Sequence record: PZ445443.1
Direction: 5' to 3' (one strand)
Origin: a phage
Length of the DNA: 64,000 bases
In this document: one piece after another, positions 41,384-45,330 of the stretch
Position numbering within the stretch: position 1 is the first letter of the stretch
Layout: each line of letters begins with the position of its first letter
Program-made: the position numbers and the translations under genes
Notes under the pieces: generated by a model
Told to the model about the DNA's origin: nothing
Seen by the model: the letters and a program-made list of their open reading frames with translations, nothing else
Database searches by the model: none

Positions 41384-41749
41384 ATGGAACAAATGAACGA
41401 TCAAGCGTCGGTTGCGATGAACGAGCAAGAACAACCTCAAGAATTTTTCTTAGGGTTAAGTAAAGATCAAGTGTCTCTTCTACTAGTGCTTTCTTCTTTC
41501 ATGGGAAGACTTCAGGAGCTCACACAACAACCAGAGGCTGAACAATTATTTCAAGCTCTGCGTGAAGAAGAAAAATATCGTCGTTTGGACTATGCCTTAG
41601 GTTGGGTAGCTCAACAACGAGATATGCTGATGGCCCTCTCTGGGACCACAAGTTTTGCAATGGGGCTGTTGGCTCAAGTTCAGGACAAATTAATTCAAGC
41701 AGGGTTTGCACACACGGCAAACACTAACGAAGAACAAGGAGACAAATAA
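41384..41749 (+). CDS. hypothetical protein (121 aa)
   Basis: ORF track; RBS GGAGA. Confidence 0.5.
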   Translation: MEQMNDQASVAMNEQEQPQEFFLGLSKDQVSLLLVLSSFMGRLQELTQQPEAEQLFQALREEEKYRRLDYALGWVAQQRDMLMALSGTTSFAMGLLAQVQDKLIQAGFAHTANTNEEQGDK

Positions 41750-43020
41750 TGAGCGTTATTCAACAATTCGCTAACCCGATGAATCCGCGTGAAACTGTTT
41801 TACTGGCTCACGGCATGATTAAACGTGTCAGCATCAAGCCTATCAAAGGTGCTGATCCTACAACAGGTATTAAAACCACTGTGTGGCAAGGTAAGAAAAT
41901 TGAATCCAGCCACACCATCTCTTTACTGATTTCTGAACTGGATTCCTCTGATAACCTGCTTCAAGGTGGTGAAGAAGTCTGGATCAGTATGGGTGATAAA
42001 CTGCTTAAACCGGGTCATCAAGACTCTGTCTCTGTTAAAATTGATGACAAGTGGGAAACCGTAACACCGGGATGGATCGTAAATATCCCTTTGAAGGCAA
42101 ACGAGCATAACGGTAAGACCTATTACAAAGGCTCACTGGCTAAGATGGTCAAGCTGGGTGCAGGAGAGGCTCCAGCAGCGACTCAGCAGCAAAAACAGCA
42201 ACAAGGTGCACAATCACAAGGCCAGAAGCAGAAACCTCAGCAGAATGCCAATCAGGACGTTTTACGCATCTATGGTGATGTGACTCAGATTGTTGGCAAC
42301 GTGGTTACTGTTAATGACCACAAGATTGGCGAAGGTGCTATGGTTGTCACTGATGAGCAGCTTAAAGACCTGGTGGTAGGTGGTCGTGTTGCAGCCATTG
42401 TTGACAAAGACACCGGAAACATTATCAGTGGTTTCAAAGCCTATCCACCTAAGGCAGAGAACGGCACCCAAGGCTCTGGTGGCAAGCGTAAATCCTCTTA
42501 CGACCCTATTGGTGTGGAGACGGGACATAGCATCAATGCGTTGCAAATCATCCTAGATCGCGGGTTTAAGGTGGACGACCCACTAAGCGTGGCTAAAACA
42601 CTGCACGTAGTCACCATTGAGCTTAAGAAAGAGTATGCTCAAGCCACCAACCGAACTGAAGATGAAGTAGGTGCCAGTGTCGGTAATGCGGTGTTGAACG
42701 CTTGTCGCCGTATTGACAAGAAAACGAAAGTTGATGATTTTGCAGCGGCAATTACTGCAGAAGCAAAAGATGTCTTGACTAATCTGGCTGAGCCGTTGTA
42801 CGATTGGATCAAGAACGGTGCTGGGTCCACTGACCATCAAGAACCTCAAGCTGCCAAACAGGAAGCTGCTTCACAGCAAAATACTGTAGACGCTCCTCCT
42901 GTAAATGACGAGGAAGATGACCCGATGGGTCAGAATCCGGCGCAGTATGACTTCTGTGATGACATACCTTTCGCTCCGGTAGGTTTGCAATATGGCAAAA
43001 GTAGAATCCACGCATTGTAA
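41749..43020 (+). CDS. putative ssDNA-binding/replication protein with SSB-like acidic DDIPF motif near C-terminus
   Basis: 423 aa; Gln-rich linker; ...DFCDDIPF resembles the E. coli SSB C-terminal tip but is followed by 15 more residues; in replication module. Confidence 0.4.
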
Positions 43021-43615
43021 GAGGTGCATCAAGTGCGGAGAGGTGAAAGACCTCTCCGAGTTCTACAAACACCAAAAGATGTCTGACGGTCATCTTAATA
43101 AGTGCAAAGAGTGTTGCAAGAAGGCCAGTAGGGAGGCTGACCAATTTTCCTACGACTCTTCAGAAAAAGGTGTAATACGCGTGCTGTACAAGGCTCAAAA
43201 GTGCAACAGCAAGCAAAGAGGTCACCCGCCTCCGACTTACACCAAAAAAGAGTTTAAGGAGTGGCTATACCTAAACGGTTACAAAGAGTTGTATGATCAA
43301 TGGGTAGCCAGCGGATACGACAAAAGGAAAAAGCCTTCTTGTGACAGGATAGATGATTTCAAAGGGTACTCTTTTGATAATATCCGTTTAACGACTTGGG
43401 GAGAAAATAAAGACAAGCAGACAGAGGATATTCTGTTGCATAGAAGCACCAGCGGTAGACGGTGTAAAAATGTAAGGAGGCTGGACATGAATGGCAACGT
43501 TCTTAAAGAATGGGTGTCCCACAACTCTTGTAGAAGAGAAACCGGAATATGTGTTGATTACTACATTCATGAAAAAATTCCAGCCCCAGATGGATACCTC
43601 TATGAATACTTTTAG
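42992..43615 (+). CDS. HNH-like (homing-type) endonuclease
   Basis: N-terminal Cys/His cluster CKRCIKCGE...KH...[10 protein letters not shown]; basic C-terminal region; overlaps 3' end of upstream gene. Confidence 0.45.
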
Positions 43616-43630
43616 CACCTAACTAACATA

Positions 43631-43659
43631 GCCCTGCCCGAAAGGGTGGGGCATTTTTG
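43631..43659 (+). terminator. rho-independent terminator (copy 2 of repeated hairpin)
   Basis: GCCCTGCCC-GAAA-GGGTGGGGC then ATTTTTGT; matches hairpin at 32857. Confidence 0.65.
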
Positions 43660-43677
43660 TATAAGGAGATCTGAAAA

Positions 43678-44094
43678 ATGACATTAGAAGATATCATTGT
43701 TAAGCCTGAGAACTATGACCAATACAACCTGTCAACTCAATCTGTAGACCTTGGATGCGCCACGGTCAGTGCGTGGCTGGTTAACGGAAAAGAGCTGGAT
43801 AAATGCTTAGAAGCTCACATGTCTATTAACAAGTTTCTGGATGAAAATACTCACTGGCTTGATGGTGCAGGCGTATATGCTTCATGGTTGGAGAGTATGG
43901 GATTCGACTACCAATCTGAAGAGGGGTGGTGGAGCTATTTAGCTATCTGTCCAGAGACGCTACAATGCTTCATGAAATATTCTGAAGATTTGGAGTACCG
44001 GGCGGTGGTTGATAGTGCTATTGCCCGTTATAGCCGTAAACCTTTTTCCCACGACATTAAAACTGTGGAAGAATTTGTTGAAGTTTTCTGTTGA
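43678..44094 (+). CDS. hypothetical protein (138 aa)
   Basis: ORF track; RBS AAGGAGA. Confidence 0.5.
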   Translation: MTLEDIIVKPENYDQYNLSTQSVDLGCATVSAWLVNGKELDKCLEAHMSINKFLDENTHWLDGAGVYASWLESMGFDYQSEEGWWSYLAICPETLQCFMKYSEDLEYRAVVDSAIARYSRKPFSHDIKTVEEFVEVFC

Positions 44095-44456: not shown

Positions 44457-44882
44457 ATGATCTATGAAATGCCAAAACTGATTCGTGACGATGCCCAAAA
44501 CGCTCACACCATTATTATGGGCAAACGCATGGATATTATTTGTCATAAAGATTTCTGGGAAGGAAGTTACTTCACAGAGTATTTTGGTAAACTGGACAAT
44601 GGTCTGCTGATCCAGTTCTACACCGATGCGGAAAACAACATTACCTGGGAGTTCGAAACTGAAGATGTCCATAAACTTTTCACCTTCCTCGGTATTAAGG
44701 TTAAGGCCAAGTTTGAAGAAGGTGAGTGCGACGATTGTGGATTTTATGAGGTAACAGATTTCTACCTTCCTAGCGGTAAGAACCTTTACTATGAAAGCCA
44801 CTTCGGTAACTCCAATATGCCACAGTGCTGGACTGAGTTTTTTGAAATTGCGGAAGAGGAGCTGGCTTACCGTGATTATTGA
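44457..44882 (+). CDS. hypothetical protein (141 aa)
   Basis: ORF track; RBS GGAGAA. Confidence 0.5.
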   Translation: MIYEMPKLIRDDAQNAHTIIMGKRMDIICHKDFWEGSYFTEYFGKLDNGLLIQFYTDAENNITWEFETEDVHKLFTFLGIKVKAKFEEGECDDCGFYEVTDFYLPSGKNLYYESHFGNSNMPQCWTEFFEIAEEELAYRDY

Positions 44883-45330
44883 TACTGTGGAGGGAGATTT
44901 AATCTCCCTTTTTAAGATCGGTGCTGGTCACCTGATCCACGGTTGTAACTGCTTCCACACAATGGGCAAGGGTATAGCAAAACAGATTGCCCGTGAGTTT
45001 CCTCAAGCACTGTCAGCCGACAAAGAGACTAGATACGGTTGCCTAAGTAAACTGGGTGCGTTCTCCCGATGGGAGCACTTATCTCCGATAGGTATTGTCT
45101 ACGGAATCAATCTATATACCCAGTTCTACCCAGGACCTAATGCTGAGTATTTCTCAATCCTGAAAGGCTTTGAGCTAGTCAATGAAGTATTCAGCGGATC
45201 GACTTTACCATTCTACATCCCTAAGATCGGGTGCGGCATAGGCGGTTTGAAGTGGGAACACGTAGAGGACGTTATCAACCTTGCCACTTTCGACATAGAT
45301 ATTGTCGTGGTGGAGTACAAAAAGTGTTGA
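44872..45330 (+). CDS. macro-domain protein (ADP-ribose binding/processing)
   Basis: HGCNCFHTMGKGIA and IPKIGCGIGGL resemble macro-domain glycine-rich motifs; GTG 44872 with GAGGAG upstream (track start 44791 overlaps upstream gene). Confidence 0.55.
   Translation: MIIDTVEGDLISLFKIGAGHLIHGCNCFHTMGKGIAKQIAREFPQALSADKETRYGCLSKLGAFSRWEHLSPIGIVYGINLYTQFYPGPNAEYFSILKGFELVNEVFSGSTLPFYIPKIGCGIGGLKWEHVEDVINLATFDIDIVVVEYKKC

Follow-up and report, generated by a model that had tools for sequence, protein, structure and literature searches.

A conserved 15-residue extension beyond the SSB-type tip of a vequintavirus protein, and the endonuclease gene that overlaps it

The 64,000-nucleotide stretch of phage DNA analysed here (sequence record PZ445443.1; the window) belongs to the genus Vequintavirus. 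It encodes a 423-residue protein that resembles SSB (single-stranded DNA-binding protein) and carries the acidic tip DFCDDIPF. In this protein the tip is internal, since a further 15 residues follow it, and the codons of this extension overlap the start of an HNH-like endonuclease gene (Table 1). Textbooks present the SSB tip as a motif whose function depends on its being a free C-terminus, and it organises some 17 to 20 host genome-maintenance proteins. We consider it probable, on balance, that the window holds a long-tail allele of the SSB-like gene in which the tip and the 15 residues form an old and selected motif, and that a homing endonuclease at a hot spot at the 3' end of the gene switches the tail between a free and a capped state. 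The SSB-like family has already been described and the endonuclease is of an ordinary kind; the novelty lies in the conserved capped-tip module and in the way that endonuclease cassettes toggle it.

Anatomy of the tip and the extension

The open reading frame (ORF) continues from the tip codons (42949-42972) through the 15 extra codons to a TAA at 43018-43020, and there is no in-frame stop after IPF. A first-pass annotation, made from the sequence alone, had described the 423-residue ORF with its Gln-rich stretch, acidic tail and tip, the 15 residues that follow, and the overlap with an HNH-like ORF. All of these stand, the overlap being 29 nt with a +1 offset. Its suggestion that the stop might be mis-set falls with the uninterrupted frame. 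A cluster of 533 member sequences has this same 423-residue product as its representative. The tip is no chance match, since P407 and F408 do not vary among 37 homologues that reach down to 24% identity.

The tip and extension together form the module D-F-x-D-D-I-P-F-A-P-[IV]-G-L-Q-Y-x4-[IL]-[YH]-x-[LIM]-COOH, and in capped proteins DFDDDIPF is strictly conserved. Pairwise comparisons over the 15 codons of the extension gave a proportion of synonymous differences (pS) of 0.78, which is saturated, and a proportion of nonsynonymous differences (pN) of 0.23 (pN/pS 0.29). The extension is under purifying selection at the protein level, and because pS is saturated while pN is low, it is the peptide that is conserved and not the DNA.

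In the window, Cys403 (42955-42957) replaces one of the three conserved Asp residues of the tip. Among the sequences compared, this DFCDDIPF variant goes with the cassette of extension and HNH gene (in the window, in rV5 and in P0001, the cluster of 533 members); two apparent derivatives, EPFV3 and P0005, end at DFCDDIPF.

Other ways of accounting for the tail were tried. Frameshifting or readthrough that would yield both tail forms was rejected, since the alternative frames after IPF give no IPF-stop and since unrelated DNA follows the stop in short-tail alleles. The β-clamp motif (QL[SD]LF), the PIP box and the BRC FxxA motif were poor fits to the extension by eye. A search for the extension motif found it in none of the searchable papers, and a sequence search of the PDB with the tail brought up only myosin constructs tagged with SSB and the tips of ordinary SSBs; none of these structures carries the extension.

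Distribution of the extension

Outside the genus, the extension occurs where no HNH gene is adjacent. In Salmonella phage PVP-SE1 the protein ends DFDDDIPFAPIGLQYGRNFIHCI, with a terminator directly after the stop; in Klebsiella phage Seu621 it ends ...APIGLPYGRNFIHCI; and in Justusliebigvirus ESCO9, where the 315-residue protein is annotated as SSB, it ends ...APIGLQYGRNFLHCF. The three tails share the consensus ...DDIPFAPIGL[QP]YGRNF[IL]HC[IF], followed by the stop. A metagenomic relative that is 83% identical (L009) keeps the extension, while an internal deletion of about 557 nt has left its HNH gene with 15 nt at the 5' end and 23 nt at the 3' end. Of the 71 representatives of the family, 27 have the extension and 44 end at PF, and the tail state changes at least 14 times on a quick neighbour-joining tree of their cores. 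A locus search with the single SSB-like protein yielded 2 IMG/VR loci.

As a separate observation, three HNH-less relatives from the 75%-identity clade (L011, L012 and L013) have a conserved mini-ORF of nine codons, MFNEENWDV, just before the terminator. It lies about 30-110 nt past the stop of the SSB-like gene and has its own Shine-Dalgarno sequence.

The extension is also present on proteins outside the family. A word-indexed search with the 44-residue tail found 4 proteins only; the breadth of the distribution emerged when a tail profile was searched exhaustively against 1.84 billion cluster representatives (50% clustering, E <=1e-3). This gave 59 matches, 46 of which have DDIPF followed by AP[IV]GL[QMP][YHEF]...[ILM]. 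Among the carriers are PF00436 SSBs of the canonical kind (for example Pseudoalteromonas piscicida WP_045988842.1) and several Pfam-less families of 250-480 residues. A degenerate-DNA scan for the extension, covering one genome per species, found 8 loci. Six are full-length canonical SSBs ending ...DDIPFAP[IV]GLQYP-x-[LIV][LV]-x-x-[MC], from Pseudoalteromonas, a Vibrio plasmid, a Vibrio metagenome-assembled genome (MAG), Oceanisphaera, Glaciecola and a Parasphingorhabdus MAG; the remaining two (Providencia and a second Oceanisphaera) are C-terminal fragments of 65 residues only. The cores of these SSBs are not homologous to the rV5 family, and therefore the tail module has moved between gene families. 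On these sequence matches, the extension is a general tail type of the SSBs of mobile elements, plasmids and prophages of Gammaproteobacteria among them.

One prophage SSB with a capped tail (L010, 4669-5192) is called as two ORFs, a 110-residue PF00436 part and a 63-residue tail; the split could be a frameshift, a pseudogene or an assembly error. Its neighbours are an integrase, YfdP, DUF2303 and an Rv2179c-like exonuclease.

Tail configurations and cassettes at the 3' end

Roughly 116 sequenced Vequintavirus records fall into three configurations at this locus. In configuration A, that of the window, the extension is followed by the overlapping 207-residue HNH gene (31 records). In configuration B the protein ends ...EFDDSIPF, and an HNH gene of 192 codons with a different N-terminus begins 9 nt later (18 records, or 20 with two that have a partly deleted copy). 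In configuration C the protein ends ...AFDDDIPF and the terminator follows, with no HNH gene (65 records). Thus the endonuclease is polymorphic among near-identical genomes, tip-codon variants differ between the configurations sampled, and no record of the genus has the extension without this HNH gene (31/31 extension-bearing records have both). Decayed copies occur in L009 and in phage V18 (KY683736 / NC_041937). In V18 the HNH junction matches in two pieces with only 70% covered, over a region shortened by about 40 nt; the copy is probably a decaying endonuclease.

When the window is compared with configuration-C genomes, the background divergence is 0-3 differences per 60 nt, and the excess is confined to two short flanks (Table 1). 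The tip codons, the extension, the HNH gene and a short 3' flank therefore behave as a single imported cassette. In EPFV3 a stop and C-type DNA come after the A-type tip DFCDDIPF, so that the breakpoint lies exactly after IPF. In the 75%-identity clade, an extension-bearing allele (L007) likewise has an overlapping HNH gene, whose start ATG falls farther downstream, among the codons for I-Y-A-L. The window has lost this ATG through a change of TAT to CAC (Y to H), and its HNH gene starts instead at an in-frame ATG within the Q-Y-G codons of the extension (CAA TAT GGC). A stretch containing AGG (GGTAGG) lies 8 nt upstream of this ATG, and it is likely from the sequence that the endonuclease borrows extension codons for both its start codon and its ribosome-binding site.

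Other endonuclease genes have arrived at the same place. A third PacI-like HNH variant, of 242 residues (L014, 3702-4430), follows ...DWDWDESIPF with a predicted overlap of about 35 nt. In Mydovirus K54_rec6, an unrelated classical HNH protein of 141 residues (HHCDY...HHEEWH) exactly replaces the extension codons of its sister Seu621; in the Mydovirus pair (L019, 2694-3119, against L018, 2674-2721) the tip changes from DDDIPF to DDQIPF with the HNH gene. Mydovirus provides an independent case of an endonuclease at that codon boundary. Because several distinct HNH insertions are found there, the 3' end of the SSB-like gene is a recurrent landing site for endonucleases. Those that fall directly behind the IPF codon are tolerated, since the stop there leaves a canonical free tip, and this accounts for the loss of the extension being always exact.

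The overlapping endonuclease

The first-pass annotation called the overlapping gene HNH-like. Its product matches phrog_1035 ("endonuclease VII") with an E value of 7.2e-41 and has weaker matches to HNH PHROGs, among them phrog_3377 ("HNH endonuclease") over residues 101-180. Scans of Pfam and NCBIfam gave no significant match for either the endonuclease or the SSB-like protein, and there is accordingly no Pfam HNH match; some endonuclease homologues have NUMOD-type Pfam matches. From N- to C-terminus the protein has a Cys4 zinc ribbon, a His-Me finger like that of PacI and a region resembling NUMOD. C12, C15, C38, C41, R119, Y126 and N139 are invariant in 34 homologues; N139 is presumably a metal ligand and the Cys pairs presumably zinc ligands. 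An AlphaFold2 model has a predicted local distance difference test score (pLDDT) of 92, with strands at 115-119 and 131-135 followed by a helix at 136-149, and the top two Foldseek hits are I-HmuI (prob 0.98) and PacI (prob 0.99). Thus the HNH-like call holds for the fold, the PHROG matches and the invariant N139, and not for the catalytic His, whose position is taken by the invariant Arg119. PacI is a His-Me finger without a catalytic His that uses Tyr instead (PMC5714182). From sequence and model, the 207-residue protein appears to be a free-standing homing endonuclease of the PacI/I-HmuI type within the HNH superfamily.

Identity and domains of the SSB-like protein

The 423-residue protein is a member of the rV5 gp209 / Bas52_0087 SSB-like family. 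It matches phrog_4477 in PHROGs with an E value of 2.3e-172, profile positions 1-393 corresponding to residues 1-408, so that the 393-position profile stops at the Phe of DDIPF. Over residues 1-408 it is identical at 402/408 positions to Bas52_0087 of phage RudolfGeigy (Bas52). These matches, together with the OB fold in the predicted structure, bear out the earlier description of the protein as SSB-like. Homology of the OB domain to canonical SSB at the level of sequence was sought and rejected (no Pfam match; hhalign probability for the N-domain 0.24%).

An AlphaFold2 model was built on the 37 homologues. It contains the OB-fold-like domain, a Gln-rich linker (the Gln-rich run is at about residues 145-170), a second β domain, a four-helix bundle and a tail in which residues 360-423 are disordered, the extension included. 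The second β domain is missing from the Stephanstirmvirinae versions of about 305-320 residues. A 2026 preprint on DRT10 treats it as a second OB fold and describes Bas52_0087 as the SSB-like trigger of the DRT10/UG17 reverse-transcriptase defence, with two OB folds, a disordered C-terminus and an FDDDIPF tip (bioRxiv 10.64898/2026.04.29.721553). According to the same preprint, substitution D252V or Y351C in Bas52_0087 lets Bas52 escape DRT10, host ExoI/SbcB modulates the defence, and the SSB-like assignment rests solely on Phold and AlphaFold2 predictions (bioRxiv 10.64898/2026.04.29.721553). Both escape sites are present in the 423-residue protein, D252 just N-terminal of helix 1 of the four-helix bundle and Y351 within helix 4; D252 is kept in at least 90% of the 37 homologues. 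The DARNA preprint has nothing on this SSB-like family.

A capped tip probably switched by endonuclease traffic

Canonical SSB partners (ExoI, χ, PriA, RecQ and others) bind the side chain of the terminal Phe and its α-carboxylate, and structures of ExoI, RecQ and PriA with the peptide of the SSB C-terminal tip (SSB-Ct) from the Keck laboratory reportedly indicate that the free carboxylate is needed. In the capped form this carboxylate is locked in a peptide bond, and canonical docking should be lost or changed. The 23-residue composite would then act as a distinct short linear motif, with a different partner or an altered specificity. Our best guess, which we infer from these considerations, is that the cap both blocks canonical Phe-carboxylate docking and forms a longer partner-binding motif. 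A composite linear motif is favoured because DFDDDIPF stays strictly conserved in capped proteins.

On this proposal, the extension would be ancestral in the Vequintavirinae/Stephanstirmvirinae family, and endonuclease insertion, endonuclease decay and short-tract recombination would repeatedly switch the tail between the free tip (IPF-COOH) and the capped tip. The genus to which the window belongs most likely re-acquired the extension and the HNH gene together from a diverged donor. A role of the extension in host interaction or counter-defence is plausible because the extension is dispensable, is often switched and sits on a protein sensed by a defence that depends on a tip binder. A bolder version, which we consider distinctly unlikely, is that the capped tip is an unrecognised form of SSB-Ct in phages, prophages and plasmids of Gammaproteobacteria, that it stops the recruitment of host proteins by the element's SSB or sensing by them (for example ExoI/SbcB) and may give that SSB a private partner, with HNH traffic keeping both alleles in circulation amid SSB-sensing defences (DRT10, Retron-Eco8, AbpAB, Hna and DARNA).

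Conservation of the tip plus 15 residues on the SSBs of mobile elements would mean either deliberate masking of the tip or a longer, unrecognised interaction motif. Near-isogenic natural phages with the capped form (EmilHeitz and MaxBurger of the BASEL collection) and the free form (RudolfGeigy/Bas52) offer a direct test of the tip in DRT10 sensing; two further BASEL phages, WalterGehring and HeinrichReichert, combine a free tip with the HNH gene. The locus is, in addition, an example of selfish endonuclease genes that can reshape the working end of a host gene and yet do not kill it, by inserting at precisely the point where a stop codon leaves the tip functional.

Alternative explanations

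Several observations weigh against a selected motif that endonucleases switch. About 85 of the roughly 116 vequintaviruses, some three quarters, are without the extension, and because most of them lack it, it must be dispensable for growth. The tree on which at least 14 changes of tail state were counted is blurred by recombination. In the AlphaFold2 model the extension has a pLDDT below 50 and does not dock onto the protein's own domains, which gives no structural hint of a partner. The Foldseek E value behind the HNH assignment is only about 2e-3, and ordinary mosaic recombination, in place of homing, could explain the diverged flanks. Finally, strict conservation of DFDDDIPF is unexpected if the cap does no more than abolish the tip; the tip may remain in use, for instance once a protease has removed the cap. 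This last point leads to the main rival of a composite linear motif, namely that the extension is a removable pro-peptide, from which a host or phage protease exposes IPF-COOH, or a C-terminal degron for ClpXP or Lon, and so controls the amount or timing of active SSB-like protein. Strict retention of DFDDDIPF, as if it were eventually used free, fits such a role, as do the disorder of the extension, its conserved small and hydrophobic final residues and the viability of both tail forms in near-identical phages. However, the most conserved half of the extension is AP[IV]GLQY, which a terminal degron would not require. The ssrA tag ends in ...YALAA, and the likeness of [YH]-[AC]-[LIM]-COOH to it spans 3-4 residues only. 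We regard a pro-peptide or degron as unlikely. Less likely still in our estimation is a nearly neutral, dispensable extension that hitch-hikes with recombining 3' cassettes, which we hold to be improbable: its absence from so many vequintaviruses and its frequent gain and loss are what such an extension would show, but the 15-mer is recognisable between cores only 24-30% identical and across non-homologous SSB families, and pN is far below pS.

The first-pass annotation had suggested that a mobile endonuclease gene may have inserted at the 3' end and altered the tip; on this model the extension would arise by translation into the inserted DNA and damage a formerly terminal DDIPF. Inside the genus, comparison of orthologues agrees with this: the extension accompanies this HNH gene in every case, all 65 HNH-less records end at IPF, and extension, HNH gene and short diverged flanks behave as a single cassette. 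The agreement ends at the genus boundary, where the HNH-less orthologues of PVP-SE1, Seu621 and ESCO9 do not end at DDIPF and share the same extension, which refutes the proposal. It is contradicted as well by the presence of the extension on unrelated PF00436 SSBs, by the purifying selection on it, by the retention of the extension in L009 after loss of the HNH gene, and by the other HNH insertions, which remove the extension and do not create it; in Mydovirus the relation is reversed, the HNH gene replacing the extension. An origin by insertion is thus very improbable. Less probable again, to the point of being hardly credible, is conservation at the level of DNA, in which an endonuclease site, the ribosome-binding site and start of a downstream gene, or a recombination site would be kept and the peptide would be irrelevant. 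In the window, it is true, the HNH gene takes its start codon and a likely Shine-Dalgarno sequence from the codons of the extension, and breakpoints cluster exactly at the IPF|AP boundary. Yet the amino acids are kept while pS is saturated, and the motif is conserved in PVP-SE1, Seu621 and ESCO9, where nothing is encoded downstream.

Locus and genome context

Over the locus, the window is 97-98% identical to rV5, CM1 and about 115 other records. The terminator closes a transcription unit of the gp210 gene, the SSB-like gene and the HNH gene. In the annotation of rV5, gp209 is hypothetical and gp208 an endonuclease, with boundaries identical to those in the window. The gp210 position is syntenic throughout Vequintavirinae, and the 121-residue gp210 product and the SSB-like protein may be partners whose translation is coupled. 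Its gene still adjoins the SSB-like gene in L007, Seu621 and PVP-SE1 (66%, 34% and 25% identity, respectively); in Stephanstirmvirinae an unrelated gene of about 130 codons occupies the position.

Table 1. Features of the SSB-like locus in the window (positions in PZ445443.1 as analysed)
Feature	Position	Strand	Remarks
Upstream gene, 121 residues	41384..41749	+	rV5 gp210, phrog_7310; stop overlaps SSB-like start (TAATG)
SSB-like ORF, 423 residues, ATG start	41749..43020	+	rV5 gp209 / Bas52_0087 family, phrog_4477, long-tail allele
N-terminal OB-fold-like β domain, residues 1-141	41749..42171	+	
Disordered Gln-rich linker, residues 142-168	42172..42252	+	pLDDT <50; sequence
Second small β domain, residues 171-232	42259..42444	+	AlphaFold2; 37-homologue alignment
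Four-helix bundle, residues 253-355	42505..42813	+	AlphaFold2
Disordered acidic tail ending DFCDDIPF	42826..42972	+	tip 42949-42972
Left cassette flank	42914..42972	+	10-11 differences in 56 nt against configuration-C (HNH-less) genomes
15-residue extension capping the tip	42973..43017	+	motif AP[IV]GLQY-x4-[IL]-[YH]-x-[LIM]
Endonuclease ORF, 207 residues, ATG start	42992..43615	+	rV5 gp208, phrog_1035 "endonuclease VII"; +1 frame relative to SSB-like ORF
Overlap of SSB-like and endonuclease ORFs, 29 nt	42992..43020	+	
Catalytic ββα region	43334..43438	+	R119, Y126, N139 invariant; canonical HNH His replaced, as in PacI
Right cassette flank	43604..43660	+	5 differences in 54 nt, then background
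Strong intrinsic terminator	43631..43652	+	common to all three genus configurations

Three further observations concern the surroundings. A local spike of divergence from rV5 at 43754-43850 (8-13 differences per 60 nt, elsewhere 0-3) is a small mosaic patch within the 138-residue gene at 43678-44094, the gp207 homologue, and is unconnected to the HNH cassette. The ORF at 44791-45330 appears, when matched by gene order, to be the rV5_ev146 gene annotated as a Macro domain (Poa1p-like, ADP-ribose-binding); its homologue in L009 has a faint Macro match. Sixteen MG0656xx records titled "Campylobacter phage", with C. jejuni as host, are 95-98% identical here to rV5-like coliphages, and the host assignment or the samples of these records look doubtful.

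Comparison with known systems

Like bacterial SSB (PF00436), the 423-residue protein has, at the level of predicted structure, an OB fold in its core, followed by a disordered linker and an acidic tip. The tip DFCDDIPF differs from the ...MDFDDDIPF-COOH of E. coli SSB by one Asp to Cys change and gives weak alignments with the PRK09010 SSB model's tail and with SSB chains in the PDB. Unlike PF00436 SSBs, the protein has no core profile homology and possesses two extra domains. In addition, the tip of the 423-residue allele is internal, so that the α-carboxylate of its Phe is not free, whereas in the 408-residue sister alleles it is. Bas52_0087 is alike in predicted architecture, in D252 and Y351, and in its acidic tip; it differs in being a short-tail allele of 408 residues (...YSFDDDIPF) with no HNH gene downstream. 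The passages of the preprint that were consulted mention only the FDDDIPF C-terminal tip and not the long-tail form (bioRxiv 10.64898/2026.04.29.721553).

The 207-residue endonuclease shares with PacI (PDB 3LDY) the motif C-DR-x-D-x-F-x-GYS-x2-N-x-RL, which in PacI reads C-DR-S-D-S-F-E-GYS-P-Q-N-A-RL (sequence E 0.16), as well as the missing His and the invariant Tyr. With I-HmuI (PDB 1U3E) it is linked by the NUMOD-type matches of its homologues. It is free-standing, whereas I-HmuI is intron-encoded and PacI is a restriction enzyme.

In T-even phages the free-standing homing endonuclease genes of the Seg and Mob families occupy places between conserved genes, and flanking markers are co-converted as they spread. 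The endonuclease gene described here resembles them in its presence or absence among near-identical genomes, in its short diverged flanks, in the decayed copies found at this locus and in lying where a conserved replication-type gene ends, ahead of the terminator of that gene. Homing, in which the enzyme would cut the endonuclease-free allele near the insertion site and be copied into it, is putative here, and the evidence for it is indirect: the diverged flanks and the tip-codon variants that set the sampled configurations apart. Unlike the insertions of Seg and Mob genes, those seen here fall at a functional peptide boundary, so that endonuclease traffic would alter the C-terminus of the host gene's product.

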